The notes beneath the pieces were generated by a model. It was given only the letters and a program-made list of their open reading frames with translations, made no database searches and was not told the origin of the DNA. DNA of 64,000 bases, taken from positions 1 to 64,000 of the forward strand of contig KZ538261.1 of NCBI GenBank assembly GCA_000934665.2, given 5' to 3'. The translations under genes and the position numbers were made by a program. Each line of letters opens with the position of its first letter. Within the stretch, counting starts at the first letter, position 1. This DNA is from Catajapyx aquilonaris. Taxonomy: Eukaryota. Shown here one piece after another: positions 906-57,900 of the stretch.

Positions 906-3900
906 ATGGATAATTTTCTTTCTGATCGATATCATGATGCAATTGATTCTTCTACCTCCGATATCTGGACAAGAATCAATCCACCGAAACGTACCACGCC
1001 GATGCATTCAAAGATGAAGGGACTAGCATGGAGTACCCTAAATCGCAGGGTCATGTCTCAATCGCGTCCGACCAGAAAGAAAATCAAGAAATCTGCATTT
1101 GTATTCAAGTGCGTCAAGGAATACTGCGATAACACTTCATTACATGGACTCAAGTACATTACTATGGACTCAAACTGTACATGCGAAAGGTAGATTATGT
1201 ACAATTATTTAGTGTAGAGTGAATAGTATATACATCACGCTTTTTCGCACTAAAGAGGGTCAGATATGCTTGAGACATGGCGGCATGTAGTTCCTATAAT
1301 TATGCTCAAAGCATAGAAATTGTGGTGACTTGTGTCTGTATAATTAACGACATGGTGACGGCATCTCGAGCGCGGCTGGTCCTCTATAGTGTAAATGCAC
1401 CTGTTGTGTTGTTTTGTGATGAAAAGGTACCACTTCCAGGGTCCTGTGGATATTATTTTGCATCTGTGCAACATTAGGAACGGCTTACTACTTGCATCCT
1501 ACTTTTGAGAGATACATGGAGACGCCTATAGCTACAAATATAGCTTCAGTGTCGGAACCAATATGGAATATCCACTTTCCAGGAATTACTATTTGCAATG
1601 TGAACAAGGCGATCAAATCACGGGTCCGTGACATGCTTCATAAGCCGAGGTGAATTTTATATAATGGCTTATATTAAAACAGAGATGAATAGAATATAAT
1701 GCAGGATCACAGCATACCAAATTCCTCTTTCAATCCTGTCCTGTTTCAGATGGAGCCAATATTCTACGGAGATTATTGATGCTATTGTAGATAATATGGC
1801 CAAGATTGGAGAGGTGGATACGAATATGTGGTCATCAAGTAACGTTCCAAAAGAGGATTTCGAAAGGGCAATTGGAGAATTGACCGGTGAAGACCTGAGT
1901 GTATTAATGAGAGCGGTAAGGGAGGAAAAAGTAACTTAGAAAAAACAATGCACGTATATGTAGGGCGTTTCAATATTGTAATGTCCGTAGTTCTTAGTGA
2001 TTTTTCCAGTAATCTTCTAATAAATTGCACAGTTTTTGTGATTAGCAAAAGTATCAGCTGCTAATAAAAATCCAAATTAAATCAGCAATTCCTTCTTTGT
2101 ATCGCAATATAATTAGCTATTTCTTATTTGAACATTTGGCATCTATCGTAAAAGAAACAATTCATTTTCAGACTAGGACCCCTTTTTGAGCTATAAAAGC
2201 TAATGTACTTACGACCTCCTATTATTAGCAGCTAATAATGGCGAAAAAAATGTTAAAAACGTTTGGAGGTATAAGTTACAATTTGAAATTACCAGATTAA
2301 GCCCAATACTCATAATGACAACTATGGATATTTCAATGGGTATACTTTGCAAATGGAAAATTGTGGCATTTCTATGCCTGGTCTTTACACTTTATGCCTA
2401 CATGTGACTTTTCCGGTTTTCCTACAGGTGATGCAGCCAATTGAACGTATGGCAATTGCCTGCTGGTGGATAAGTGAGCCAGTAAACTGTTCAGACATTT
2501 TTCAACCCATGGCGACAGATGCAGGATTTTGCTGGGGATTCAACGTGGGAGTCCGGATAGAAAGGTAACTAAGGCATGCATATACTAGAATATATTACAA
2601 ATGGTCTAGACTAGGCTAGACATAAGTATTGTGCCTGTGTGCATGGTATGTATTTTGAAGTGGTTCAAAAATAGTGTCACAATTGTACTACCTGTGATAC
2701 AATCTTGTCCCCTGTATTAGGATAAGTACCGCCTGGGCGTAGAACGTCAAATAATAATTTATTCCAAAAATCTTCCTGGCGTTATGACCTTCATTAATTA
2801 CCACTTGATTATGTGCTGTACATCAAATATTTTTTTACGTCCGTGGTACCAAATTTTGTAAGCCTGTGTCGAGCACCTCTTTCGCCACACCAATTTTTTC
2901 GCTCCTTGGTCAGTCTCCTGACAACAAAATTTAGCAGAATTTGGGGTAACATGTTAAGATCTTCCGTTTATAGGTCTGGGCCATGGTCATGTAACGTTTT
3001 TGATCTTTGTGGCTCAAATGTCTTCCACTGAAAGTGTTGGAGTATAGGACTGACGACATTGCCTGACTGCTCATTTTAGTCTTTGGACAGGCCTTCTCAA
3101 AGTCTGTAACAGCTCCAAGGGTGCGAGCACGAACACTGTGGTCGTCACCTTGCACTTAGTGACCTTCACATGCTTCACCGTATGAAATATTATAGGCTGA
3201 AAAATAGGGAGAGTCAAAGATGCGAATAAATGGGATTGGTGATCGTGCTCAACACAGTTAATTTGTTTGCAGGTCTACTACAGTAATGTTCTAAAAGTAT
3301 TTCCATATAGACATGTTGATTGTTGAGCCTGTCAAATGGTTAAAAAAGGTCTGCGGTGCGACTTAATTATGTAGATTTGAATATTATTCTTTAAGAAACT
3401 GGCGGCCAAACTATTCTCTTAATGCGGTAATATTTACAAGTATGACTATCACTAATATGGAACATTTGAGTTAGTTGAAGCATTATTTTGCGCGACTCAT
3501 ATTGTATATATAGGAATAATCTGGAAGTACTACTTATTTGCAGAAACATTTGAGTTAGTTGAAGCATTATTTTGCGCGACTCATATTGTATATATAGGAA
3601 TAATCTGGAAGTACTACTTATTTGCAGAAAATCTGTAAACGGAGCCGGACCAAACGTGGGATTAGTCGTCCTTCTGAATCCAGACGCGCATGAATACTTT
3701 TCATTTTCTAGTGACATTCATGGATTCAAGGTACTATGGTTTTACTTATTTCTGTCATATATTTGCTTCTTAATGTTTTCTCTTCATTTTCCGGTGAATC
3801 CGGAAAAACCCTGTTTCCAGGATGGATTTTGCGATGTATCCTACCAAAATATTATAACAGAAATAATCGTGAAACATCGCAAAAACCCTCATGGAAGGGA

Positions 3901-5158: not shown

Positions 5159-7058
5159 TACACATGATAATGAGCAAAAGCGTTCCATTTTTTCTCTGAT
5201 TATGTATTAAAAATCCATAAAAACTGACAAGGGAAGGTCACGGGGTGATAATGACGGATCTTGATGAAATTGATCATGCTAATACAGGACAATATAATTA
5301 TGATACACAAAAATTAAATATTTCGTGCGGAACCCCATATTTGCAAAAGTTATGGCGTCTTAAAGTTCCAAAAATAAGACATTTTCATACTCCATGGGAT
5401 TACATTAGCGACCACATATAATGAGTTTGAAGTGTGCAATCACAGTTTCTAGACCTTTTCTCATTCTTTCAGGGAGCATGTGAATCGATATATCGTAACC
5501 TAGGCAACATATCGATTCCAGTATCGGCTTGGTCGATAACATCATGGCGGCCGATGACGCTCATTGCAAACTTGTCCAACGTCAGGAATAAATTCCACAG
5601 CCCCTGTGCCAGAAAGTCAGGCAAAACCCGGAGTAAATCCCAGAAAAACACGGTCAGGAATACACGGAAACTAACTTCGAAATCCAACGATAACCCGCCC
5701 GTAAAGTAGACTTGTGCGGATAGAGTGAACCCGGAAGACCGGAAGTGGCGTGTCACCAGAAGTTGACCATGAAACCTATTTTGGTCACGCTCAATCCGAA
5801 TATGAAAACCGTTTGTCGCTATCTCTTACGGTTTAGACCTTGATACCTGTCCACAGACAGACGGACGGACGGACGGACGGCCAGAGCCGTTCTGTAGGAC
5901 TTTTTTCCGATGAGAAAAGGTCTAGAAACTGATTACACACTTCAATGTCATTATATGTGGTCGCTAATGTAATCCCATGGAGTATGAAAATGTATTATTT
6001 TTGGAATTTTAAGACGTCATAACTTTTGAAAATATGGGGTTCCGCACGAAATATTTCATTTTTGGGTATCATATATTGTCCTGTATTAGCATGATCAATT
6101 TCATCAAGATCCGTCATTATCACCCCGTTTTTGGCACTTACTCGTAGAGCTTTGTGCATGTCCACTTTTCAATATATTATTACATTGACAAGACAATATT
6201 ATGCATTGCAGCTAAATTTTTAACTGTTACTCCGGATAGAATAATTAAAGGATTAATGAATATCACATCAATGGACTCTTGCGACTGCCCTCCCACCTGC
6301 AACTTTGCCACTTATAGTTGTGAAATAAGCATGGCCAACTTTCCAAAGCACCCCCAAGACCTTAAGAATGTTCCGGAAGGTATTGACAGGTGTGTTAATT
6401 AAGTTATTATTAATAGCTTTAGATGTTTAGAACATTCGTTGATGCATGTTAGTATATACGAATGCCGAAAATAATACTGTTTTTTGTGTCATTTGAACGG
6501 CTTAAAGCAAGCCTGTAAATCCCTATCTCAAAAAGAGATGAGTTACAAAATGTATAGCATTTCAGAAAACACAGCTATTTCATTTTTATCTACTTGTATG
6601 CCTCAAAATATAACCATTCACGGTTAACTGCCACCACAACATAAGTTATAATATGTAACATCATCGCAAATGTTGATGCATTTCTTCCTGCTGGATTCCT
6701 GCTCATAGCTATACTATATATTTTCCTTTTTCCAGAAGCAACTTGGTGCTTCTCAAAGTGTTCTTTAAACAGGAAAGCTTCGTAGTATTCCAACAAGATG
6801 TGACCTTCACAGCAAACGATTTCATTGGTAAATACGAACTGTGATACGAACTTGTGCTTGGAATTGATGATGATAACGACGATGATTCATATTCCAGCGT
6901 CATTCGGGGGCATTGTTGGCCTCTTCATCGGATTCAGCTTTGTCAGCTTGGTAGAGCTCATCTACTATTTCACTATCCGGCCAGTGATTCAATGGAGAAG
7001 GTCAAACACAAATAAAATTAGGCAAATGACACCCTTGCGCCACAATATGCTACCTTGA
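906..7058 (+). CDS. DEG/ENaC (pickpocket-like) sodium channel subunit, copy 1; 10 coding exons, 553 aa
   Basis: Exons 906-1189, 1440-1649, 1750-1915, 2428-2564, 3628-3730, 3954-4230, 4716-4769, 6212-6389, 6736-6827, 6898-7058; all GT-AG, total 1662 nt, in frame. Motifs YCDNTSLHG, TM1 VLWILFCICATLG, FPGITICNVN, GFCWGFN, CRLEC..CGCVPY, CDCPPTC, TM2 ASFGGIVGLFIGFSFVSLVELIYYF. Confidence 0.92.
1248..1391. mobile_element. Degenerate MITE-like insertion in intron 1 of copy 1
   Basis: Imperfect terminal inverted repeats cactaaagagggtcag..gcttgaga / tctcgagc..ctggtcctctatagtg. This intron is 250 nt versus 59-71 nt in the paralogs. Confidence 0.45.
3461..3628 (+). repeat. Exact 84-bp tandem duplication that includes the exon-5 splice acceptor of copy 1
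   Basis: 3461-3544 is identical to 3545-3628 (aacatttgag...cttatttgcaga). Confidence 0.95.
4295..4615. mobile_element. Tc1/mariner/pogo-type MITE in intron 6 of copy 1
   Basis: Imperfect ~21-bp TIRs cattgtactactaattatccg / cggataatcgggagtacagtg, flanked by TA at 4293-4294 and 4616-4617; internal ggattatcc subterminal repeats. Confidence 0.7.
5079..5158. repeat. (ATT)n microsatellite in intron 7 of copy 1
   Basis: Pure trinucleotide run. Confidence 0.95.
5240..6128. mobile_element. Foldback/MITE-like element with ~220-bp terminal inverted repeats in intron 7 of copy 1
   Basis: 5240-5464 is the near-perfect reverse complement of 5910-6128 (acggggtgataatgacggatcttgatg.. / ..catcaagatccgtcattatcaccccgt); internal (GACA/GACG)n run at ~5852-5880. 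Confidence 0.85.
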
Positions 7059-12224: not shown

Positions 12225-12284
12225 TCAGTTTATTGAAACGACTAGTGCTGATAAGAGTGAGCTGCAAAAGGAAAGGAATCCGAG
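12225..12284 (+). promoter_or_regulatory. Putative initiator (TCAGTT) and non-coding first exon of copy 3
   Basis: TCAGTT at 12225-12230, strong donor GAG|GTGAGT after 12284, acceptor tttcag at 13520-13521 just before the ATG; same layout upstream of copies 4 and 5. Confidence 0.5.
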
Positions 12285-13545
12285 GTGAGTGATAATAATT
12301 ATTATCGCACAGGTATGGTGTATACAGTACCGGATTTTCCTTTACCAGTTCATGACTTACGTGTATGCTATCTAATGCAATTTACCCGTAATTGATTAAC
12401 AATATTGCTCATTAATTCAGCTATATTACCCTTGAGTAGGCCTATACATCATAAAATCCCTTGTATGCAGTGAAGCCTTTTGACCTTCAAAATAACCATA
12501 AAGGGATATATTTTATTTAGACACTTGCAAAATAATATTATTAACATGCTCCAGCAATACATTGTTGTGGCTAAAACTCTTACGTACCGGTACAGTAACC
12601 GAGCAATTTTTGAAACGTTCTTTATTGTGTCAGTTTACAGTAGAGCAACTGTTCGAAAAGTTTCAAGATGTTGCTTTTAGCAGACTTCATTTTTTAGGAT
12701 GATATTGTAACAAAAAAAATAATTATAAAGTCCTGCCACAAAACCTACAAGTACGTGGAAATATTTTTAGGCATTTCACGATGACTTCCACTGATAAATC
12801 TCCACATTTTTCATGATTCCGAGTAAAAGTGGGCGGTAGTATTTTTTAGCCTGAAGATTTGGTATCAGTTTATCCTTTCCGGTGAAAATGTTTATTTTTT
12901 TCTAAGACACATTAAAACACTTCCGTAAAAACCTAACAAAATATACTAAACCTTTGGTTTCTTCACTGGTTTCTTTTCAAAATATTAACTGCAGAATAGG
13001 GGAAAAGTGTGCCACTCTGTGAGGTGATTTTTAACTAAAGAGTCCATTAGACAGATTTACATTAGAACCATTCCGATGGCTTTTATTTCAGAAAAATCAT
13101 TCTTAGACGTGTCCCTGAGCGTGGGGCATTACATTTTCAGATCCATAATTAGGTTCTACCTAATGGATCAATATGAATAATTAACAGCCGGTGCTAAGTC
13201 ACACGGTAATGTGGAAGATAATAATGAACACAGGGAGTGATTAATTAATGAATAAGTAAGTTGTTTTCCTAATGGAGATCATCGAATGTCCGACCAGAAG
13301 AAGTCACGTATTTATATTTGTTAATCCACGTAAAATATAATTATTACGTTGTAGTGCTGCAGCATTCTTCACTTGAACTGCAACTACTGTAACTACATCT
13401 TATAATGGGACTTACCTGTAGTTACATTACGTAAGTAGCTAGTAATGGGGCATGTAACTGAATTTTACAGTTACTTATATGACCTCTGATATATAGTTCC
13501 AGTGTCATATTCTTGTTTCAGGTTTTTATATTAAAATCTCAAAAT

Positions 13546-16500
13546 ATGCACAGTACTGGTAAACGTGAGAATAGTAATCCTTACATTACCTGGAATAAGA
13601 ACAACACGAATCATAATCCCACGTATCGATTGAGCAGAGATCATCAATTGTCATCTACAAATAATCATGTAATGCACCAGCAACAAACTAATGAAAGAAG
13701 ACTTACTTCTGAATTTGTCATCATGTGCGCCAAGGATTACTGCGACAATACATCACTCCACGGATTCAAGTACATTACCGAGAATGATAACTTCAAAACC
13801 GAGAGGTAATGTTCACTGATGACCATGAACCTACAGCATTACATTAACCGTCTCTTGATTTCAGAGTACTTTGGATATTATTCTGCATATGTGCCACAAT
13901 AGGAACATGCCTGTATCTGCAGCCAATATTTTCTAAATATCTGGACACGCCAATGGCAACCACCATTGATTCAGTGGGGGAACCAATATGGAAAGTGCCG
14001 TTTCCAGGAGTAACCATATGTAATGTGAACAAAGCCATGAAATCACTTGTTGATCGTATTCCAAATACAGAGAGGTGAAGTATCTCCAGGCTCCACAAGC
14101 AATTAGATACGAAAACCACTATATACATTACAGTATGTTGCTCTTCATCAGGTGGAAGAAATACCCTGCAGCTGTTTTGCGAAGTCTCATCAAATATTTG
14201 GCTAAGATTGGTCACGTCCAGGCAAATCGCGCGTCATTAGACGTGCCTCTGGAGGACTTCGAGGCGCTGATTGAAGAAGAAATTAAAGTAGGAGGTCTGC
14301 ATGAACTGATGCAAGGGGTAAGGAGAAAACAAATGTGAATTGTACTAAATGAATGAGCTATTTTTCTACGCAGGCCGTGATAACTGATTTTTAACAATTT
14401 TCAGGTGATGCAACCGCTAGATCGAATGGTTCTCAAATGTTGGTGGATTAGTCAGCTAGTGAATTGCTCAAAATTTTTTGAAATAAAACACACTGACACG
14501 GGATTTTGCTGGGGATTCAATTCTGTGTCCATGAAACTTGTTGGTGATAAGTAAGTTGGTACTGCCCTCCAGTAACTCTCTCTCTGACAATTAATTAAGG
14601 TGCATCTCAGTATTTACTGTATATACATAAACGCCATGTGATTTAGAATTATTTAGCTCTCTTCCATTTGAGTGAAGGTCCTTCGCATGACACTTATCTT
14701 AAAATTGGCGTCCCGGATCACATGTGTGGCTACTCTGTACTGTTCGTAAGGAAAGAGATGCGAATTTAAGGATTTTAAATGATTTGCTCTTAAAAAATAA
14801 TAGTGTACTAATAAGTTATATAACTTACATGAAAACCATTTTCAGGCGGCACGATGACTTTCAACCCGTAAGAGTAAGTGGAGCTGGGCCAAATATTGGG
14901 TTAACCGTGCTGTTGAATCCGGAGGTGGAGGAATACTTCTCATTCTCAAATAATATTAAAGGATTCAGGGTAATGATTATTTTGAAAATTTATACGACAT
15001 GGCAACATTACCGTAGTGTAACATAATAGCCGAATTTCTGCATAATACCATTCGTTTTTTTGCTTGAAAGCTACTGTATATATGAAACAGTATTGATATA
15101 TGAGAAGGGGTGAAAATGATTTCTCAAATGAATGAAACATTGGTTAAATTTTCTGGAATACGGAAATAACTAGATGATAATTTTAAAATTATATACACAG
15201 GTGCGGATTCATCACCCAATGAATTTCCCCAACGTCGCCACCAAGTCCTTCTTACTTGAGGCAGGAAAAGAGGTGTACGTGGCAGTAACTCCAATAACCA
15301 CAAAGAGCACAGTAAACGTTCGCAACACACCGATGTCGAAGCGTCGCTGTCGGTTTGAGGACGAGAAAGAATTGAGCTACTTTCCGTCATACAGTTATAT
15401 GAACTGCCGTTTGGAATGTGTCGTGGATTCCATGAGAGACACGTGTGGTTGTGTGCCTTACATGTACTCGAATTTGAGTAAGTACCGTAATATTTCGCTA
15501 GAGCGAAAGTGTGTAGATAGTTTGAACAAAAAGGCACAGATGCAGTAGCCATAACACTGATATTGTGCGGTAGACTCTTTACATACTGCACAACACACAA
15601 TAATTCAAAATGTTTAATTTTTTCCGTGTGTGTCCTTCTGCTCAAATGCTGTACACTTGTCATCCAATCTAGTGCATTATTTCATGAAGAATTTTTACCT
15701 TGCAGAGAACCACAAACTTTGTAATTATACAGGGATTCAGTGCATCAACAATCACACCAGTATGTGTTAATTTATTATGTTGTGCTGTTCAGTACGTTCA
15801 CCCTTCCAGTTACCTAACATGTACTGTTTCTGTTCCCAATGCAGCCAAGTTTTTAACAGTGGCTCCTGATTCGGATGTGAATGGATTGGACAAGATGAAA
15901 TCTATGGAAAAATGTCATTGCCCTTCGAGTTGCACGGCAGTGATCTACAATGACCAAATGAGCCAGGCCTCGTTTCCGGAATTTCCTGAACAACTCACAG
16001 TGATTGATGACAATATCAATAAGTACTTTCCTTAATAGTTTCTTGAGAGGGACGATTTCAATATAATTATTGATACTGACATTTTTCAGAAGAAACTTAG
16101 TTCTCCTTCGAGTGTTCTTCAAATCGGAAACATTCGTACAGTACCAGCGGGATGTGATGTACACTGTCAATGACTTAATCGGTAAGAATGTACTTTAAGA
16201 ACAACACAATAAGAATTTATTTTGGAGCAATTAAAATTCACCTTTACGGAGCCTCACCATGTGTCTATAAAACTAGTTTATAAATGAAGATAATTATGGT
16301 CACTTATTTGTGATGAAATATTTCTGCTCTCCTAACATCATATAGAATAAGACGTTAGATCATTATAATATAAGTTCAAATGACTCTCCTTGCACATTTT
16401 CAGCATCTTTTGGCGGAATTGCCGGCCTGTTCATTGGATTCAGTTTTGTGAGCATTGGCGAGCTGATTTACTTCTTCACTGTTCGACCATTTCTTCGATG

Positions 16501-16570
16501 GAAGAGGCGCTCGCGGGAGATAAATAATGTCCGACCCATACGGCCAGTATACCCAACAATAATGCCATGA
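13546..16570 (+). CDS. DEG/ENaC (pickpocket-like) sodium channel subunit, copy 3; 10 coding exons, 557 aa
   Basis: Exons 13546-13805, 13865-14074, 14152-14317, 14405-14550, 14846-14969, 15201-15477, 15706-15759, 15845-16022, 16090-16181, 16404-16570; 1674 nt in frame, all GT-AG. Motifs YCDNTSLHG, FPGVTICNVN, CRLEC..CGCVPY, ASFGGIAGLFIGFS. Confidence 0.92.
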
Positions 16571-16779
16571 GAATGCTGGAGTGAACAACGCCCTTCTTAG
16601 AACACAGTGATATTTAATTAAATACTCACATGCAATGGCGATTTGTGCCTGGTATAGTGCTTCAGATTTGTGGACACGAGTGTCTGAAGCTGTGATATGA
16701 ATTATCTAGTCTAGTGAATGTCATGGAAAACGTGGGAGCTCCTTAAAACTGTATGTACCTGTTTTAAGCCATTTAAATT

Positions 16780-16785
16780 AATAAA
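16780..16785 (+). terminator. Candidate polyadenylation signal, copy 3
   Basis: AATAAA, also present at the paralogous position downstream of copy 4 (21812-21817). Confidence 0.5.
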
Positions 16786-16990
16786 AATCATTATTGTGCC
16801 AGTTGCAAAGTTATGTCATGTATCCAACCAATGAATAGTGCCCACGGGAATACTTAAACGAAATATACTCATCGCGTGTAAATGAGTCTTCTCAGTATAT
16901 GCCAGGATTCGATGATGCAAGACATTGCATCATGACCACGCGACGTGAACAAACAAACGACTTACATACGGGACACCTGCTGTATTTATA

Positions 16991-17043
16991 TCAGTTGACA
17001 GAACCAACCAGTACGGAGACAGACTCAAGGAGAACAATCAAAG
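16991..17043 (+). promoter_or_regulatory. Putative initiator and non-coding first exon of copy 4
   Basis: TCAGTT at 16991-16996, donor AAG|GTAAGT after 17043, acceptor tttcag at 18525-18526. Confidence 0.5.
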
Positions 17044-18550
17044 GTAAGTGAAAAAGTGCAAGAATAGTTTGCAGTTACCAGATCATCATTTACAGTATGT
17101 CCATCCTAATGCAGTTTGCCAGTAATTGATTATTATTAATATTGCGGAATAAACCAGATGCAGGCTATACTCCTGCTGCCTTACAAAGCACAAAACATTA
17201 TTTGCCTCAAGTCAGTTCATCTGTTGGTCCAAGTACCATAACACAATAGACTTATTTAGACATCTGCACAGCAATTACGAACGTGCTCCCAAAACACTTA
17301 TAATGTATATCCTGATAAAACATCAGTGTTTGATTGTCTTTCTCCTTTTTACTGCATCCTTCCTATTTGAAATAATGACTTTTCGGAAATAATTAGTCCG
17401 TTGATTTTCTGTAACAGAACTTCCATTATAAAGGCAAGTCTTAACCCTTCAATCAAGTTGATAATTATTTTCCTCGAAATAACAGTAGTATTTTTATTGA
17501 AAAATTATTATAGTCCCATTATTAATAAATTATTCTATAAATAGCAAGTTTCCGTTATTTTTCTTGCAAAATGTTATTGCATAACAATATTATAATATAC
17601 ATTATACCGTGGCATTAACGATAATGCAATTTTATTGCACAGTAATATCAATTCACAACATGACTATCGCGATTAATTCTGTGAAATTCCATTGCGACCC
17701 TTTGTATGACGTTTACCACCGCATTATTTATCAAATGTTTGGTATCATCACATTAGTCAGGTTCAAATAACTTATGATTTTTTTTTGTTAGCGGTATTAT
17801 TTTGGAGACAATTTTGCGAATTGTATTATTTTTCCCCAGATGTCCTTGACTGCTGGAAACTGTTTACTCTGCATCTAATGGATTGACATGATTCTACAGT
17901 CACCCGATCATGACTGTGTGTAGGTGAACCAAGAAAAGACTGCAGGGATTAGGTGGGCTTTTCCAACTTTTCTGCCCGCCTACATATGTTTACCACACGG
18001 ACTAGTGCCCGATTACACCAACTGAAATTACCGATTCGATAGCCCCTATAACGGATCGGTCGGAGCCCTTGTTGCGCCAACAATAGGTGTTGCACTAACC
18101 GAACAGATAAGAGTTGCAGGGGGAATATTTGGCCCGACAAGAACTTATATAATATATACAGAGGGCTTTACGGAGGTACGATACTACCCCAGGGTGAGCG
18201 TGTGGGACGAACGTGAGGGACGCAATTATTATAGGCTCTTTGCAAAGAGTGCAAAAGGTATTGTGCATGCTAGAGTGAATAAAACATCAAGTTCCAATGT
18301 CCTTGGGTTTTACTGTACTCATGATCATCCGGGATAATTACTGCACGGATGTTGCCGTCACAACATACTAAAGCACATGTAATTCTGGCAAAATAATGTT
18401 TCCAATAATTACTCCTACATTATACGTAAGTACTGTATTACACGGTGGATGTCACTATAATATTTTAATTAGTGGCTTTCTTTGACTGAGAGTTACAGCT
18501 ACTTATAAGTAATACGTATGTTTCAGGTTTAAGTGTCACATGCTAAAAAT

Positions 18551-21189
18551 ATGAACAGTATTCGTGAAAGTGGTAATCCTTACATGACGTGGAATAAGAA
18601 CAACATAAACAACAAGACCACGTATTCGTGGAGAAGAGATCTTGAATGGTCAGCCACAAATCATAATGTGACGCACCAGAAGCAGCAACCCAGTGAACGA
18701 AGATTCACCTCATCTGAATTTGTCATCATGTGCGCTAAGGATTATTGCGACAATACATTACTGCACGGATTCAAGTACATCACAGAAAATGACAACCTCA
18801 AAATTGAGAGGTAATGGTTCATCTAATATCATAAACTACTCTACATCACATTAACTTACTCTTGATTGCAGAATACTCTGGATATTATTCTGTATATGTG
18901 CCACAATAGGAACATGCCTGTTTCTGCAGCCAATATTTTCCAAATATCTGGACACGCCAATAGCAACCAGCATTGAATCAGTGGGGGAACCAATATGGAG
19001 AGTACCATTTCCAGGAATAACCATCTGCAACGTGAACAAGGCCATGAAATCAATCGTTGAGAGTATTCATACTACAGAGAGGTATTTTCAGGGTCCTCAA
19101 GCAATCATACATTGGAATACTAACTATTTACTCGTTGCTATTTTGCAGGTGGAATAAATATTCTCCAGCTATGTTGAGTAATCTCATCAAATATTTGGCT
19201 AAAATTGGTCACATCCAGGCAAATCGCGCGTCGTTAGACGTTCCTCTGAAGGAGTTCGAGGCAGTGATTGATGAAGAATCTAAAGTCGGAGGCCTGAGTC
19301 AACTGATGAAAGATGTAAGGAGAGCAGAAGCAGTCAATTATCATCATGAAACCCCTATAATTATCTGGATATGAATACGCTGTATTATGTTGTGTATGTT
19401 GCTGTCTTGTAAGAACGCAGGTAACTGTGAATACTGTATACCGGATGATCTTATGTCTTACAGGTAATGCAACCCATACATCGCGTGGCTCTAAAGTGTT
19501 GGTGGATTAGTCAGCTGGTGAACTGCTCAGAAATTTTGAAAATAAAACGCACTGACGCAGGATTTTGCTGGGGATTCAACTCTGTGTCCTTGAAACTAGT
19601 TAATGACAGGTGAGGGATATGCTCGCCAATTACTGACAATAAATTACTGATGTATTGAAAATCTGGTTATATATAATTTATTATATGCCAAATATTTTTA
19701 GTGGACATGACAACTTTAAACCCATAAGAGTAAGCGGAGCTGGGACATATATTGGGCTTACAATGCTGTTGAATCCGGAGGTGGAGGAATATTTCTCCTT
19801 CACAAACAATATAAAAGGATTCAAGGTAACATAAATATTGTCAGAATTTACGGCTTAGCCACTACACTTTCGTTGCATGAGGTTCAGAGTTAATGTGAAA
19901 ATTTTAAAATATAATATTACACATAGGTGAGGATAAATCACCCTATGAATTCCCCCAGCATTGCAACCAAGTCCTTCTTACTAGAGGCAGGAAAAGAGGT
20001 TTATGCGTCAGTAACTCCACACACCGTCCATAGCACGCCAAACATTCGAGACACACCGACGTCCAATCGTCGCTGTCGGTTCGAGGACGAGATAGAATTG
20101 AGTTACTTTCCGTCATACAGTTACGAAAACTGTCGTTTGGAATGTGTCGTGCATTCCATGATCGACACGTGTGGATGTGTACCTTACATGTACTCGAATT
20201 TGGGTGAGTCCTTTCTCTTGATGCTCTACATATAACTAACCGTACAATAGTTATGTACTGCGCGCCAATGCATCATTTCATCGCTAACTTTTTTACCTTG
20301 CAGAGAACCACAAACTCTGCAATTATACGGGGATTCAGTGCATCAACAATCACACTAGTGAGTATTATTAAATACTACGCGTGTACCGGCATTAATTAAG
20401 TACGTTCAGCACCTCCTAGCATCTAACATGCATGGTTGTGTTCCCAATGCAGCAAAATTTTCATCAGTGGCTCCTGATTATCATGTGGACGGATTGGCCA
20501 AGATGATATCTATGGAAACATGTCATTGCCCTTCGAGTTGCACTGCAGTGATCTACAATGTCGAAAGGAGCCAGGCCTCGTTTCCGGAATTTCCCGAACA
20601 ACTCACAATGGTTGACGACAATATCAATAAGTAGGCCTATACTTATACGTGTATTAATAGTAACTTGAGATGCATGATTTCAATATAATTATTGATGTAT
20701 ACTGACATTTCAGAAGAAATTTAGTTCTCCTTCGAGTGTTCTTCAAATCGGAAACATTCGTACAGTACCAGCGGGATGTGATGTACACTGTCAATGACTT
20801 CATCGGTAAGAATGTATCTACTACGTCTTGTACTGTAAGAACAACATAATAATAATTTAACTTTACGGAGCCTCACCATTATTCTGTCTATAAGACTAGT
20901 TCATAATGTTCACTTATTTGTGATGAAATATTTTTGCTCTCCAATCATCATATAGAATAAGGTGTTACATCATTACATAATATTAGCCTATTTGAAATTT
21001 GACTCTCATTGTACATTTTCAGCATCTTTTGGCGGAATTGTCGGCCTGTTCATTGGATTCAGTTTTGTGAGCGTTGCCGAGATGATTTACTTCTTCACTG
21101 TTCGACCATTTCTTCGATGGAAGAGGCGCTCGCGGGAGATGAACAATGTCCGACCCATATACGGCCAGTACCCAATATTAATGCCCTGA
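18551..21189 (+). CDS. DEG/ENaC (pickpocket-like) sodium channel subunit, copy 4; 10 coding exons, 557 aa; probable chimera
   Basis: Exons 18551-18810, 18872-19081, 19149-19314, 19464-19609, 19702-19825, 19927-20203, 20304-20357, 20453-20630, 20714-20805, 21023-21189; 1674 nt in frame, all GT-AG. Motifs YCDNTLLHG, FPGITICNVN, ASFGGIVGLFIGFS. Confidence 0.9.
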
Positions 21190-21232
21190 GAATGCTTGAA
21201 TGAGCAACGCCCTTCTTAACACACAGTGGTAT

Positions 21233-21637
21233 TGTCACACTCCTGTACCTCCGGATCTCATAAGGATCCCCCTCAATGATCACACGGCATGTTTTGCCGC
21301 TTTCTCATTTAATTATAAACACACTAATGTATACATAACACTCTTATACGCTACACATTCCGATCCTTTCTGTCTGGAGGTCCTGGCTTCGGTCCATCCG
21401 GACCCTCAGCTTCCCTGGCTTCTGCTTCTTCTTGTTCTGTTGCTACCAGACCTCAGACCATCCTCTGCTAGTCAGTCTCTCCCGTCCTCTCTGCATCCTT
21501 CCCTTTTAATACTGTTTCTCTGACTCAGTATGGGATTTCCGCCGAATTCTTCCCCAAAGGCGCGTGCCTACGACATCCTGGCTTATGCAACGTATGTGTC
21601 ACTTATTTTGATGTGCCACTTACGTTGACGTGTGACA
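21233..21637 (-). mobile_element. Solo LTR (405 bp; 4-bp TSD, Ty3/gypsy-like) in the 3' UTR region of copy 4
   Basis: Ends TGTCACAC...GTGTGACA (perfect 8-bp inverted termini, TG..CA), flanked by GTAT at 21229-21232 and 21638-21641; absent at the paralogous site after copy 3. Strand inferred from minus-strand TATTAAAA and ATTAAA. Confidence 0.85.
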
Positions 21638-22030
21638 GTATTTCATTAAATACTTACATAATTATGCAATCACTATTTGTGCCTGGTAGTGCTTCAGATT
21701 TGTGGACACGAGTGTCTGAAGCAGTAATATGAACTCTTTTGTCTTGTAAATGTTATGGAAAACGTGGGAGCTCCTTAAATCTATATGTGCCAGTTTTATG
21801 TCATTTAAATTAATAAAACTCATTATTGTGCCAGTCGCAACCATCTCAATTTTAGTGCTGTCATGTTTCTACCCAATGAATAATTCCCGCGAGAATACGT
21901 AAACAAAATATAGCCTATTCATCGCGTGTAAATGAGTTTTCTCAGTATGCCAAAATTCGATGTTGCAAGACATTGTTTCTTGACGACGCGACGCGACGTG
22001 AACAAATACAGGACCCCTGCTGTATTTATA

Positions 22031-22083
22031 TCAGTTGACAGAACCAACCAGTACTGAGACACACTCAAGGAGAGCAATCAAAG
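22031..22083 (+). promoter_or_regulatory. Putative initiator and non-coding first exon of copy 5
   Basis: TCAGTT at 22031-22036, donor AAG|GTAAGT after 22083, acceptor tttcag at 23532-23533. Confidence 0.5.
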
Positions 22084-22937
22084 GTAAGTTAAAAAGTGCA
22101 AGAATAGTTTGGAGTATCAAATATTTCTTTATACCAGATCATCATTTACAGTATGTCCATGCTAATGCAGTTTACCAGTCATTGATTATTATTAATATTG
22201 CGGAATAAACCAGATGCAGGCTATACTCCTGCTGCCTTACACAGCACAAAACATTAGCCTCTAGTCAGTTCATCTGGTGGTCCAAGTACATGACCATCAA
22301 ACAATCCACTTGTTCTAGATATACCTGATGCAGATCAATTACGAACGTGCTGCCAACGAAGCACTTATACTGTATATCCTGATAAAACATCAGTGTTTGA
22401 AATAGTCTTTCACCTAATTAGTTTACTGAGACCTTCCTATTTCAAATAATGACTTTTCGGAAATAATTAGTCGGTTGACCTTCTGTAACAGAACTTCCAT
22501 TATAAAAGCAAGTCTTAAACCTTCAATCAAGTTGATATTTTTCTCGAAATAACAGTGGTCTTTTTATTGAAAAATTATATAGTCTCATTATTAAGAAAAT
22601 ATCAAGCAAGATTCCATTATTTTTGTGCAAAACATTACTATTGCATAACAATATATATTGTACAGTTGAATGGCATTAATTATAATGCAATTTTATTAAA
22701 CTCACAACATGACTATCGCGATTAATTCTGTGAAATTCCATTGTGACGCCTTGTATGATGTTCACCACTGCATTTATCAAATATTTGGTATCATCCCATT
22801 AGTCAGGTTCAAATATGATATTTTGTTGCCGGTATTATTTTGGAGACAATTTCGCGTATTATTGTAATTATTCTTCCGCAGATGTCCTTGACTCTGTAAA
22901 CTATTTTCTCTGCATCTATTCGTTTTACATGATTCTA

Positions 22938-23178
22938 TAAGTGTGGCTTGTGTTGTGCTCCAGTGGTTTCTTTCGTGTCTTTGATTTTGGACTTCGTTTT
23001 CTGTTTGTTTTTATGTTGTAAATAGCTTTTGGACAGGGACTCTGTCTAGGATTTATATAAATAGGCTTGATTGATGAACCGTGTGCCCCGGCCGTATACT
23101 GCTCGACAGCCTGGACTTTGACTGTTGGTTGTCCCCGGGCTGTTAGGCCTGTTAGGCTACGTCAGTCCGTACATTACC
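22938..23178. mobile_element. ~240-bp insertion, possibly a decayed solo LTR, upstream of copy 5
   Basis: Absent from the paralogous spacer (gattctacagtcacccgatc at ~17890); flanked by direct repeat ttcta; internal tttatataaa. Confidence 0.55.
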
Positions 23179-23557
23179 TTCTAAAGTCACGCGATCATGT
23201 GTGTATAACTAACGGTGAGTGAATGTTTCACCATGGAGATCATCGTATATATGACTAGAAGTCACGTAATATAATAAATTATTATCTTCGTCAATGAATC
23301 CAAAATTCAACTTTGTAGTGATGAAACTCCCTTGAATACCTAAATTAAACGTATCGTTACAACCAAGAACATACTAAAGCACTTGTAATTCTGGCAAAAT
23401 AATGTTTTCAACAATTACGCCTAAAAATATTCGTATGTACTGTGTTACAAGGTAGATGTTACTATAATATTTTAATATAGTGGCTTTCTTTGACTTGTGA
23501 GAGTTACAGCTATTTATAAGTTACATATTTCAGGTTTAGGTGTCACATGCTAGAAAT

Positions 23558-25994
23558 ATGAACAGTATTCGTGAAAGTGATAATCCTTACATGACATGGA
23601 GTAAGAACAACATAAACAACAAGACCACGTATTCGTGGAGAAGAGATCTTGAATGGTCAGGCACCAATCATAATGTGACGTACCAGAAGCAGAAACCCAG
23701 TGAACGAAGATTTACCGCTGAATTTGTCATCATGTGCGCCAAGGATTATTGCGACAATACATCACTGCACGGATTCAAGTACATCACCGAAAATGACAAC
23801 TTCAAAATTGAGAGGTAATGGTTCATCTAATATCATAAACTACTGTACATCACATTAACTTACTCTTGATTGCAGAATACTCTGGATATTATTCTGCATA
23901 TGTGCCACAATAGGAACATGCCTGTATCTGCAGCCAATATTTTCCAAATATCTGGACACCCCAATAGCAACCAGCATTGATTCAGTGGGGGAACCAATAT
24001 GGAAAGTGCCGTTTCCAGGAGTAACCATATGTAATGTGAACAAAGCCATGAAGTCACTTGTTGAGCGTATTCATAATACAAAGAGGTATTTCCAAGGTCC
24101 TCAAGCAATTATACATTGGAATAACTATTTACTCGTTGCTATTTTGCAGGTGGAATAAATATTCTCCAGCTATTTTGCGTAATCTCATCAAACATTTGGC
24201 TAAAATTGGTCACGTCCAGGCAAATCGCGCGTCATTAGACGTGCCTCTGAAGGAATTCGAGGCAGTGATTGAAGAAGAATCTAAAGTCAGAGGCCTGAGT
24301 CAACTGATGAAAGATGTAAGGAGAACAGAAGCAGTCAATCATCATCATAGAAACTTCTATAATTATCTGAATTTGAATGCGCTGTATTATTTTGTGTATG
24401 TTGATCTCTTGTAAGAACGGCGCAGGCAACTGTGATTATACCGGATGATCTTTTGTGTTATAGGTAATCCAACCCATACATCGCATGGCTCTAAAGTGTT
24501 GGTGGATTAGTCAGCAGGTGAACTGCTCAGAAATATTTGAAATAAAACACACTGACGCAGGGTTTTGCTGGGGATTCAACTCTGTCTCCTTGAAACTAGT
24601 TAATGACAGGTGAGGGATATGCTCGCCAGTAACTAACAATTACTGAGGGTATGCAAAATCTGAATATGTGAAATATTTTTAGTGAACAAGACGACTTTAA
24701 ACCTATAAGAGTAAGCGGAGCTGGGCCAAATATTGGGCTTACAATGCTGTTGAATCCGGAGGTGGAGGACTATTTCTCCTTTTCAAACAACATAAAAGGA
24801 TTCAAGGTAACATAAATTTTGTCAGCATTTACAGCTTAGGCACTACGCTTTCGTTGCATTTGGTTCAAATTTGAAAATAATTTTTAAAACACAATATATT
24901 TCACATAGGTGAGGATTCATCACCCGATGAATTTCCCCAACATTGCAACCAAGTCCTTCTTACTAGAGGCAGGAAAAGAGGTGTATGTGCCAGTAACTCC
25001 ACGAACCGTCCAGAGCACGACAGACATCCGAGACACACCGACGTCCAATCGTCGCTGTCGGTTCGAGGACGAGATAGAATTGGATCACTTTCCGTCATAC
25101 AGTTACGAGAACTGTCGTTTGGAATGTGTCGTGCATTCCATGATCGACACGTGTGGATGTGTTCCTTACATGTACTCGAATTTGGGTAAGTCATTTCTCT
25201 TGATGCTCCACAACTTACCGTACAATAAATATGAACTGCGCGCCAATGCATCATTTCATTGCAGAGAACCACCAACATTGCAATTATACGGGGATTCAGT
25301 GCATCAACAATCACACAAGTGAGTATAATTAATTACTGCATGTACCGGTATTAATTCAGTACGTCCTCCAAACAACTAATATGTACGGCTTTGTTCCCAA
25401 TGCAGCCAAATTTTTAACAGTGGCTCCTGATTCTGATGTGGATGGATTGGACAAGATGAAATCTATGGAAAAATGTCATTGCCCTCCGAGTTGCACGGCA
25501 GTGATCTACAATGACCAAATGAGTCAGGCCTCGTTTCCGGAATTTCCTGAACAACTCACAGTGATTGACGACAATATCAATAAGTACGTAACTGATAGTT
25601 ACTGGAGAAAATATGTACATGAAACATTAATTTACAGTAAATGCAATTACTGATGTTTTCTGCCATTTCAGACGTAATCTAGTTTATCTTCGAGTTTTCT
25701 TCAAATCGGAAACGTTTGTTCAGTACCAGCGTGATGTGATGTATACTGCCAACGACTTCATCGGTAAGAATATATCGCACTATACGAACAACAAAAATGT
25801 TACAGTATTCTGACGATTGAACATTTCCAGCATCCTTTGGTGGAATTGTTGGCCTGTTCATCGGATTCAGTTTTGTCAGCTTTGCAGAGCTGATTTACTT
25901 CTTCACCATTCGACCATTTCTTCGATGGAAGCGACGCTCTCAGGAGATAACCGACGTCACGCCTGTACAAATTATGTATCCAATAATGCCATAA
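23558..25994 (+). CDS. DEG/ENaC (pickpocket-like) sodium channel subunit, copy 5; 10 coding exons, 555 aa
   Basis: Exons 23558-23814, 23876-24085, 24150-24315, 24464-24609, 24683-24806, 24909-25185, 25265-25318, 25406-25583, 25672-25763, 25831-25994; 1668 nt in frame, all GT-AG. Motifs YCDNTSLHG, FPGVTICNVN, ASFGGIVGLFIGFS. Confidence 0.92.
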
Positions 25995-54900: not shown

Positions 54901-57900
54901 GAATGGTCATTGTTTGCTTCGTCGGGCACGTGAAACCTTTTTGTTAGCAGTCTGGTAGAGTGAAAGTCTCACCCCGGAGGGGTACATTAATACGGTGATT
55001 TTTGACTCCCAGTGTGCTGTTTAAAATGTAGCTGTTATTAACATTTTAAGGATTGGCTGCTTGCTAAAAAAGACTGCATTTAGCCGCCTGAAAATAATGG
55101 AAGAGATTTTACAAGTTCACATAATGCAAGAGCGCAGTTAAGTAGAGTTCACAAGTGTTCAGCCCTCCTGGAATTAAAACCGCCTGCAAATTCCTCCAAT
55201 GTAATGAAGCTCAATATCCCGCATTCCTTCCTAAGCGGATTTCAGGGCTCTGTATAAAATTACTGTATAAATATTTCATACTTTAAATCAGCCTCCCTGA
55301 ATATATTTTTTTTGTTGCATCCAATTCCTTCCCACACCCCACCAAAAGCGCTTCAGAGTCAGGAACTCTGGCTTTAATTAGTCGACTTTCAATGTCTCGC
55401 CAGCAACATCTAGACAAGATCCTTTTGCATAGAGCTAGAGAATCTGCTGGTAGAGGGAGAGAGAGAGCAGCGACCTGGATAAGTCCCAAGCGGTCGTTAG
55501 GGCAAGTTTCCAGCAAGTCTTTCTCGCCCTTAAGTTGCAGGCATGTGCACCAAAGGAGGAGCAATGGGCGACGACCAGCAGCGACGTGGATGAATTGCAA
55601 ATTACCACCTCACATCTACAATGGAGACAAGCCTGGATCTTCTCCCCTTTCCCCGAGGATAATTATTCCTCTCCAGCAGTACTGTTACACCCTAGAGAGA
55701 GAAAGGCACATGCAATTTTTTTCTGCACATTTTTTTTGCAGAGTAAAATGTATGAGGTGCGAATAGAAGTTATCGTTGCTCATGCAAAAGGGGCTCTCTC
55801 AGGACGCTTAAATTAATATTCTAATGCGTTCCTTTATTTCCGGCGGGGACTAATTTGGTATGTAATCCGGTGGAATGAATGCTCTTACGCCCGTTTCCTT
55901 TATTTCCGGGTCCCAGTGTATGTAGAAGCCCCCCTCCCCCTTCTGTCTGTTACTCATTTAGAGAGCAGGTCATTATTGCATCGTCGCAGGAAATTGTGAG
56001 GTTGGAGAACAGACGTGCTTTTATTCCGGGCATGAATATGGCTTTTCAGTTGATTTTTTAGGGCGCACCTGAAATTGGGAGGGTACGCTGCAAGAACGTG
56101 ACTTTATTATCTCGGAACAGTCAATATTTAATCCTGCGAAGCTCAAAGGTGAGGTACACATGAAATCGAAAATTGAGGGCTGTTCACACTGTAGCTCGTT
56201 ATGCATGTTTTTTTGGGGAAAGCAAATGTGCTTGTTCTAAGGTAATTTTGATAAAAATTACTTTTTGCAAATTTTTGGACCACTTAGTAATTTTTTCTTC
56301 CACATACAGTGTCTACAGAATAACTTCTCAAAAAGTAGGAGGCGACCTCTAGACACCCTAAGCGATCTGATTGGTGGAACAGAGGTCCCCTGGCCACGCT
56401 TAGGGACTGGTGGGTACAGTGCGGTCCATAAGAAACCCTCTTTTGAAGTCGGAAGATTTAGGACATGCCATTTTTTTGGAGGAGTTAGGTTGTTGGTAGT
56501 ATAATATGTAGCAGAATTTTCTTCTCAGCAGATCAGCCTAAAGCAAAGTCGACATTATATAAGAGGCACAAGTTGCTTCCAGTATAAGAAAGGCGATGGC
56601 GAGACAAGTGCCCCCTGAAGAACCCACAGCTCCTTCCTAGCTGGTGCCCCATAAACGTCCAATTCGGCCAATTTACAGCCACCTTATCTGAGTCCCCGCC
56701 GCAATGTGCATGGAGAATCCGTGAGCGCTATAACTAAACAATTAGCGGATTAGATTAAGGGAAAGGAGCCGGGGTGGGGGAGCCTCAAAGCTTCATGAGG
56801 ATGGTCGGGCATGTGATACCGATTATGCGAGAGATAATTACATCACCTGCCTCAGGTAAAGTGCGCCGTCTGTTATATACATGCGGGTTAAAGGAGGGAA
56901 CCTCCGAGCCTCATGGAGTGCTGCTGTTGCTGGCTAACCCCCATGTCCGCATCCCTTTCAATTAGCCTGTTGCTCTTCAGCCAGCTACTAGGTTTATAAA
57001 CGGGGCATAATTAAGGGAAGCTCAAATTTGGCGACGGAATTTTCGCAATGCAAACTAGCTACAAAAATGGTCTTAGCCCGTAATTAATTGCGGAGTAGCA
57101 ACTTACATCTCAGGTTCATGTCCATGCCATTTGGCTCAGAATCAGCAATATTTTCCATCTTCGCTTTGTTTCATCCTGGCATGATGCTACCCAACGAACA
57201 CGCTTTTCATTTCGCAAACGGTCATAAAGCATGAAAATGCTAACGGTTTAAGTTATAGTGTGTGTCAAGCGGTACGTCAAAACGGCGACAAAACTCTCAA
57301 ATACGTGACACCAATGAGAGGGTCACTGCTCACGGTATATGATACGTATATACCAGAGTCGTTCTCGGGAAGTTTGCCTTAGTAAACCGCCACGTTTGAA
57401 TGACTGATGACCGGCATTATAATTATTATAGGATGGCGTGCGAAACGCACGACGTCAATGACTTATGAGCTTTTGGCATGAGCTATCCTTAACTCACTCG
57501 AGGGATTGTGGCTTGGACGCTTTCAGTTCGTGAAACTTATTACTGTCAACGAAACGCATACAATAAAAAAAAATCAAGGTTGTAAGAGACAAACACTACA
57601 TAGACTTGATTCTGCATTCTATTTGCAAACTTTTCCTTCGAACGAAAAATCGGACCTGTGCCAAACGGACCGATTCGCGATTTTTTTTTCTCTCTCTCTC
57701 TCTTCTCCGAGGTCAGCAACTCTCGCCCAATTGCAATGTTCGGACCAACTTTCGCAAACACAGACGTCTTGGGAGTCCCCAACATTCCGAATATTTTTCG
57801 ATCGCTTGTTAGGACCCCCCCGAGCAGCGACAGTTTGTGCAAAAAAAAAAAAAAACTGGGGGTTCAAAGTACGTTGCTCCAAAAGGGGACGTCCAATTAA

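Follow-up and report, generated by a model that had tools for sequence, protein, structure and literature searches.

The fourth of five pickpocket-like genes that lie in tandem on one contig of the Catajapyx aquilonaris genome is a hybrid of its two neighbours, copies 3 and 5, and its sequence makes it very probable that one unequal crossover between these two genes gave rise to it. The 5' part of copy 4 comes from the downstream gene and the 3' part from the upstream gene, which is the anti-Lepore layout, and copy 4 sits between two intact parents, in an order that is taken from the assembly and whose pieces are backed by contigs derived from reads. Such an origin had been proposed in a first-pass annotation of the window, by which we mean the whole stretch of DNA that was analysed: 64,000 nucleotides, positions 1 to 64,000 of contig KZ538261.1 (assembly GCA_000934665.2). 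Unless another contig is named, coordinates are window positions, and all features given below for the window are on the forward strand.

Five tandem genes of the DEG/ENaC family

The first 26 kb of the window hold five head-to-tail genes of ten exons each. Copy 3 (parent A, coding sequence 13546..16570) and the hybrid copy 4 (18551..21189) encode 557 amino acids each, and copy 5 (parent B, 23558..25994) encodes 555. All three have nine GT-AG introns apiece, with identical phases and open frames; the exon ends were read directly off the window coordinates. In copy 4, exons 1 to 5 are located at 18551-18810, 18872-19081, 19149-19314, 19464-19609 and 19702-19825, and exons 6 to 10 at 19927-20203, 20304-20357, 20453-20630, 20714-20805 and 21023-21189.

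Judged from their sequence, copies 3, 4 and 5 are pickpocket-like DEG/ENaC subunits. Seven exon pieces were searched against Pfam profiles; six matched ASC (PF00858), four of the seven over the curated cut-off, and the exon-1 piece gave no ASC match. The matches on exon 6 reached E values of 3.7e-21 for copy 3 and 4.1e-22 for copy 5, and copy 4 matched on exons 2, 6, 8 and 10. The His-Gly motif before TM1 is present in 24 of 24 paralog exon-1 pieces, and 19 of 19 ectodomain cysteines are common to copies 3-5. The best solved relatives of exon 6 are chains A and B of 9pzn (E 2.2e-13 and 6.1e-11), and one chain of this structure is named Pickpocket 26; exon 9, searched alone against solved structures, gave no match. 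Going by the ASIC1 architecture and the Pfam positions, exons 8-9 probably lie on the thumb, knuckle and palm. Copies 3-5 form a clade of their own among the paralogs (UFBoot 100). A representative protein library gave 1,865 matches at E 0.001; the best 150 of these are 26-48% identical, and no close relative from outside this genome is found among them. Among longer proteins, a search with exon 6 turned up 20 candidates, of which none reached E 1e-8. By analogy with the rest of the family, copy 4 is most likely a sensory DEG/ENaC subunit, one among many in a lineage-specific array that undergoes birth-and-death evolution.

Copy 4 changes its affinity near exon 8

Upstream of the gene and in its first exons, copy 4 resembles copy 5. 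The two are identical at 131/145 positions in the upstream 150 nt, at 244/257 in exon 1, and at 60/61, 61/64, 129/144, 63/72, 85/96 and 72/79 aligned bases in introns 1-6 (88-98%). The lengths of introns 3-6 are 149/92/101/100 nt in copy 4, 148/73/102/79 nt in copy 5 and 87/295/231/228 nt in copy 3. The likeness to copy 5 had been extended to the whole of intron 7, where we find it clear only in the 5' half. Further downstream copy 4 goes with copy 3, as proposed: the two agree at 59/65 positions in intron 8, 90/92 in exon 9, 170/188 in intron 9 (217 nt in copy 4, 222 nt in copy 3 and 67 nt in copy 5), 156/165 in exon 10 and 38/45 in the 3' flank. Percent identity of introns is a weak measure on its own, since gap-tolerant alignment leaves just 0.12-0.22 differences even in the old pair, copies 3 and 5; the result is carried by the lengths, the shared indels, the z-scores and the silent sites.

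We counted the exon sites at which the parents differ and copy 4 sides with one of them. To the left of the switch 143 of 172 such sites are of copy-5 type and 29 of copy-3 type, and to the right 37 of 46 are of copy-3 type and 9 of copy-5 type. None of 200,000 permutations gave an affinity walk as extreme, and the same was found with silent codons alone, of which 50/58 are of copy-5 type on the left and 21/23 of copy-3 type on the right. Trees built with 19-20 paralogs join copies 4 and 5 in exons 4-7 (UFBoot 100) and copies 3 and 4 in exons 9-10 (UFBoot 96). That copy 4 is a mosaic, with a 5' part of copy-5 type and a 3' part of copy-3 type, is thus borne out both by the permutations and by trees that differ on either side of exon 8. 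AU tests, which rest on short constrained searches, reject ((3,4),5) in exon 3 (p 0.032) and in exons 4-6 (p 0.046), and reject ((4,5),3) in exon 8 (p 0.025); they reject no alternative in exons 9-10 (p 0.11), in exon 7, in the exon-2 tract described below, or in exon 1 with early exon 2. The crossover interval runs from about 20400 to 20660 and covers the 3' half of intron 7, exon 8 and the start of intron 8, very close to the proposed breakpoint of about 20400-20630. It cannot be narrowed further because exon 8 is nearly identical in both parents. The frame and the exon structure are preserved at the break, which falls at homologous positions in the parents.

A pattern of this kind could come from an assembler that joins alleles or neighbouring genes, and the assembly is indeed fragmented and of short-read type (20,583 contigs); the whole stretch is spanned by none of the read-derived contigs listed. 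The sequence of copy 4, however, is distinct throughout, at about 10% from either parent. Contigs from four read runs were compared with the region from 12 to 27 kb. Among the matches listed, a contig of 425 nt spans 20326-20750, with one end in exon 7, the other in exon 9, and intron 7, exon 8 and intron 8 between them. It thereby bridges the junction with 0 differences in three runs (X1, X2 and X3). Depth in X1, again among the matches listed, is 22.6-37.3 for pieces in copies 3, 4 and 5 and their spacers versus 32.7 in the flank, and the window from 12 to 33 kb holds no N. We therefore find an artefact scarcely credible. The four runs come from one sample and are possibly the assembly's own source, so the contigs check the assembler and not a second animal. 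Two joints among the contigs, from 20761 to 25836 and from 25930 to 12000, were considered as a real deletion and set aside; they most likely reflect a long contig in which the last exons of copy 2 fit copies 4 and 5.

The spacers and gene flanks are duplicated

The spacers on the two sides of copy 4 had been called paralogous, and they are: 16611-17896 matches 21639-22937, and the sequence from 18362 onward matches that from 23368 onward. They are colinear apart from two copy-specific stretches. The first, 465 nt of the 3-4 spacer (17897..18361), has no counterpart in the 4-5 spacer; it lies in the predicted first intron of copy 4, carries short dispersed repeats, has 47 matches in the genome, and stands in for sequence that copy 5 retains (22938-23367). 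The second, 409 nt of the 4-5 spacer (21230..21638), has no counterpart in the 3-4 spacer; it belongs to the 3' flank of copy 4, is absent from the flank of copy 3, has a single match in the genome, and lies upstream of a shared polyadenylation hexamer (21812; 16780 in copy 3).

Between 1.2 and 1.5 kb upstream of each start codon we found a conserved hexamer, a block of about 50 nt and a splice donor (12225-12290, 16991-17049 and 22031-22089). We presume the hexamer to be an initiator or initiator-like element, and the block is a probable non-coding first exon. For copy 4, the segment 16991..17049 would hold the start site, the short non-coding first exon and its splice donor; by alignment it is of copy-5 type, with counterparts near 22031-22089 and 12225-12290. 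Much of what looks like spacer is thus predicted to belong to the downstream gene, as its promoter, its non-coding first exon and its first intron, and for this reason copy 4 has a promoter of copy-5 type together with a 3' flank of copy-3 type. The promoter block of copy 4 differs from that of copy 5 at 32/289 positions and from that of copy 3 at 104/278.

One age along the duplicated unit

A single crossover between A and B duplicates the sequence from break to break, so that the left and right copies of the unit should be equally diverged throughout. The left copy (15845..20452) consists of the 3' part of copy 3, the spacer and the 5' part of copy 4, and the right copy (20453..25405) of the 3' part of copy 4, the spacer and the 5' part of copy 5; the ends of both are nominal. 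On the 3-4 side, 53/417 non-coding positions differ; the upstream part of the spacer has 107/943 differences, and introns 1-6, on the 4-5 side, have 48/432. These divergences of 0.127, 0.113 and 0.111 are homogeneous (p 0.72, or 0.30 unmasked), and a second aligner gave 62/531, 108/1172 and 46/516 (p 0.22). The power of this test is 95% against a 3' side of half the age and 100% against one of double the age, and 81% and 58% against a 1.5-fold or 0.67-fold difference. Silent sites agree: the young pairs differ at 25.5/250 sites (copies 4 and 5, 5' part) and 5.5/64 (copies 3 and 4, 3' part; Fisher p 1.0), and the old pair, copies 3 and 5, differs at 75/251 and 29/63 in the same two parts. A comparison of six blocks gives borderline values (p 0.057 masked, 0.018 unmasked), owing to introns 1-2 (18811-19148 and 23815-24149), which flank the exon-2 tract and are too alike in copies 4 and 5 (4/115 differences); this likeness may reflect further conversion or constraint. 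Within the limited power of the test below a 1.5-fold difference, the whole unit of 4.6-5 kb has one age, as one crossover of the anti-Lepore type predicts.

Two other histories could give the same mosaic. Copy 4 could have begun as a duplicate of the whole of copy 5 (or copy 3), with its other half brought in later by a single long conversion. In this array conversion is frequent, and it is able to yield the same chimerism (PMC4041002), and silent divergence between copies 3 and 4 is low in exons 9-10 without the tail (1/51, p 0.06). The tract would, however, have to reach from exon 8 to about 300 nt into the 3' flank, there is no step in divergence where it joins the upstream sequence of copy-5 type, and the three blocks are equally diverged, so we regard this history as improbable. 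Alternatively, copy 4 never recombined, and copy 3 took its 3' end and copy 5 its 5' end from copy 4 in separate events (or copy 5 has a 3' end from a lost gene). In favour of this history, copy 3 is likewise marked as a child by the three-sequence tests, which are symmetric. The history nevertheless requires two events that share both their break and their age and leaves the colinear spacer copies unexplained, and we judge it highly improbable. The order of A, a gene with the 5' part of B and the 3' part of A, and then B, the duplicated spacer and the single age all fit the proposed single crossover as the origin of copy 4. They do not make it the whole history, since the identity of copies 3 and 5 in exons 2 and 8 also needs gene conversion.

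Conversion tracts in exons 2 and 8

In exon 2 (199/210 identical) and in exon 8 (172/178) the closest pair is formed by copies 3 and 5. The exon-2 tract of copy 5 lies at 23981..24059 and is of copy-3 type (13970-14048), and copy 4 keeps the older state (18977-19055). Eleven consecutive sites here join copies 3 and 5 against copy 4 (10 of 200,000 permutations). Silent differences in the tract number 1/20 between copies 3 and 5, where the background is 0.30 (P 0.008), 8/19 between copies 4 and 5, and 7/19 between copies 3 and 4. The value of 8/19 is at the old level, far over the young rate (P 0.0003), and at two conserved codons of the tract copy 4 agrees with 19/21 and 18/20 other paralogs. 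From both points it follows that copy 3 most likely overwrote copy 5 after copy 4 had arisen, which would make the tract younger than the hybrid.

Exon 8 (20453..20630 in copy 4) differs from this. Its three pairs are about alike in silent differences (6/36, 4/36 and 4/35), and the 4/35 between copies 3 and 5 is far under the old level (P 0.003), so that exon 8 of the parents was homogenised at about the time of the duplication. Most simply, this patch would have seeded the mispairing. Some exon-8 states of copy 4 look ancestral, among them codon 37, at which 18/19 other paralogs agree with copy 4; for this reason a part of the identity between copies 3 and 5 may postdate copy 4 and stem from conversion shortly after. 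In both exons we see a short bounded tract with divergence well below its flanks and no change in copy number, as expected for interlocus conversion. A fourth gene as donor of the odd exons of copy 4 was rejected, as the assembly holds no close match: exon 8 has 3 matches in the genome, all in the window, and the other 14 matches of exon 2 are at 71-77%, apart from one of 85% over 73 nt. Whole-gene trees of copies 3-5 thus mix three histories.

Protein consequences and selection

The hybrid had been described as a channel with the ectodomain of copy 5 and the TM2 and C-terminal tail of copy 3. Exons 9-10 hold 19 variable positions. At 8 of them (477, 498, 529 and five in the tail, 540-548) copy 4 shares its residue with copy 3 alone, and at 4 (501, 509, 521 and 554) with copy 5 alone; the remaining ones carry a residue specific to copy 4. 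Within TM2, for which the span of about 499-528 is an estimate, three positions of copy 4 have the residue of copy 5, and none has that of copy 3 alone. The tail of copy-3 type therefore stands and the TM2 does not. Nor is the ectodomain wholly that of copy 5, since exon 9, which is extracellular and precedes TM2, comes from copy 3, and exon 8 is nearly alike in the parents. The swap brought in few residues specific to copy 3, and its consequence for the protein is small: the hybrid would have begun as nearly a copy-5 protein with a different tail and 3' UTR. In the TM2 region (exons 9-10, 16182-16500) copy 3 itself carries three replacements of its own, at positions 501, 509 and 521 as numbered in copy 4; copies 4 and 5 have the same residue at each.

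What sets copy 4 apart probably arose after the swap, namely the changes in exon 8 and the replacement Ser70Leu. Codon 70 (18758..18760) encodes Leu in copy 4 and Ser in 23 of 24 paralog exon-1 pieces, and lies two residues before the His-Gly; the read-contig differences listed include no alternative letter at it. A nematode loss-of-function allele may lie at the position of this Ser, but the papers checked for it contain no mention of such an allele. In chicken ASIC1 the residues Ser 24 to His 29 line the lower pore (PMC7308080), and residue 70 of copy 4 may be matched to this stretch when the register is set by the His.

In exon 8 the branches carry about 12 replacement and 3 silent changes in copy 4, 1 and 3 in copy 3, and 1 and 1 in copy 5. 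Twelve of 14 replacements on one branch is an uneven share (binomial P 8e-5), in a comparison that was chosen after the fact. This and the unique Ser70Leu beside the His-Gly could mean that the hybrid was kept as a functionally new channel, with positive selection on exon 8, an altered pore loop, and new gating or selectivity. Against this, 12 replacements compare with 8.9 under neutrality (P 0.19), replacement and silent changes on the copy 4 branch differ little from those on the other two (Fisher p 0.12), copy 4 evolves as copy 5 does elsewhere in the 5' part (22 replacement and 11 silent changes versus 19 and 9), and the pattern is explained by relaxed constraint as well. The comparison with the neutral expectation does not show positive selection on exon 8, and we consider a new channel rather doubtful; it concerns the fate of copy 4 and not its origin, and is compatible with the crossover.

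Copy 4 as a whole has been under purifying selection. This follows from the ratio of replacement to silent changes, which is like that of copy 5, from the cysteines that were kept, and from the rarity of neutral simulations that gain no stop (311 of 20,000, frameshifts not counted). Moreover, gaps that are not multiples of three are confined to non-coding sequence (36 of 47 gaps there), and the one gap in an exon is of 3 nt. Relaxed constraint and early divergence of function both fit the pattern of copy 4.

The wider array

The stretches examined hold at least 22 near-complete copies of the family, on the window contig (C471) and on C925, C646 and C2462. Family stretches are found at 60212-78211 of C646, on C12021, at 63033-944 of C925 and at 966-25994 of the window. 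C925 holds 12 copies head to tail, which run out near the contig end, and copy 1 of the window is related to C925_9-12; C646, C12021, C925 and the window contig may be one array of over 20 genes. Between 26000 and 64000 the window contains no further family copy and six stop-to-stop frames of at least 150 amino acids. Several smaller features were seen in passing: a two-exon family fragment at C646:67390-67846; one in-frame stop within the matched pieces of the copy at C12021:85-1912; no exon-8 match in C925_7 and C925_8 at the threshold used; in intron 7 of copy 1, a pair of inverted repeats of 225 nt (93%) at 5240-5464 and 5910-6128 that resembles a non-autonomous DNA transposon; and an exact tandem duplication of 85 nt at window 3461-3630.

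A triplet scan of 23 paralogs found 15 of 136 triplets past the Bonferroni cut-off, with 9 genes as the child; the scan used codons anchored by tblastn and can also flag misalignment or a change of rate. There is a second sharp hybrid, C646_4 (C646:68852-74590, set against C646:75062-77958 and C925:63033-58953). Its 5' part is like C646_5 and C12021; the likeness to C646_5 lasts until about 73552, and from about 73560, inside exon 9, the sequence is of C925_1 type, which continues through 800 nt of 3' flank (91%). Pieces of an inverted repeat (74501-74751) lie at the junction that follows it. If the contigs are adjacent, the order suggests that C646_4 would be a Lepore-like product. At third positions, the divergence between C925_2 and C925_3 is 25% in exons 3-4 and 9-10 and drops to 1-2% in exons 5-8, so C925:50706-52043 and 55266-56591 probably represent a long recent conversion tract.

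The break of copy 4 at introns 7-8 and the switch of C646_4 inside exon 9 could be taken together. The array would then repeatedly recombine just upstream of TM2 and shuffle ectodomains against modules of pore, tail and 3' UTR, and copy 4 would be a subunit with new properties or a modulator of the trimers of its siblings, as its remodelled exon-8 loop and altered pore loop might indicate. We think this unlikely.

Discussion

The evidence suggests the following course for the origin of copy 4. Two old paralogs in tandem, copy 3 as A and copy 5 as B, with a silent-site divergence of about 30-45%, would have acquired a near-identical exon 8 by gene conversion. A and B would then have mispaired and recombined in or beside this exon, and the crossover would have duplicated the stretch of 4.6-5 kb between exon 8 of A and that of B. 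The expected product is the order A, the 5'B/3'A hybrid and B, which we see as the mosaic, the duplicated spacer and the single age. At its birth copy 4 would have been an extra copy-5-like subunit under a copy-5 promoter, with three copy-3 residues around TM2, a copy-3 tail and a copy-3 3' UTR. Later, a tract of 80 nt in exon 2, itself plainly visible, was probably copied from 3 into 5. Since its birth selection seems to have kept the frame of copy 4, yet the gene appears to be drifting, with exon 8 at about the neutral rate and a conserved serine of the pore loop lost.

The mechanism is a textbook one, and a similar patchwork occurs elsewhere in the array. Known anti-Lepore-type hybrids likewise join the 5' part of the downstream gene to the 3' part of the upstream gene between intact parents and take the promoter of the downstream gene, and in the dolphin there is a two-step history with conversion on top of the crossover. 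Copy 4 differs in that it belongs to an ion-channel family in an arthropod-type genome and is known here from sequence alone. Both of its parents are intact, which among the taxa with a known anti-Lepore-type duplication has been reported for one only.

Another parallel comes from Drosophila melanogaster. Or22ab is, like copy 4, an in-frame chimera of tandem sensory-receptor paralogs; in both, the swap itself contributed few residues, and point changes were added afterwards. Whereas Or22ab is a deletion (Lepore-type) allele that is polymorphic and has been tested functionally, with altered ligand responses, copy 4 is a duplication product with a neutral divergence of about 10-12% (PMC6502086).

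General background on the DEG/ENaC family is given elsewhere (PMC10148893). The ENaCs of Tetranychus urticae form clustered lineage-specific expansions, with 17 genes in the largest cluster, and the main text of that report does not use the word 'chimeric' (PMC5203786). They and the insect pickpockets resemble copies 3-5 in the Pfam ASC domain, the His-Gly before TM1, the cysteine-rich ectodomain and the head-to-tail lineage-specific clusters, but copies 3-5 are intron-rich, with nine coding introns. We found no report of a chimeric pickpocket gene in literature listings on pickpockets, which is weak evidence of absence.

Copy 4 thus offers a clean and datable example of how an array of sensory ion channels grows. 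A patch of conversion together with a crossover would suffice to yield a new gene in frame without the loss of either parent. Provided that copy 4 is expressed, copies 3, 4 and 5 would be a natural trio for mapping the roles of the exon-8 loop, the tail and the pore-loop serine.
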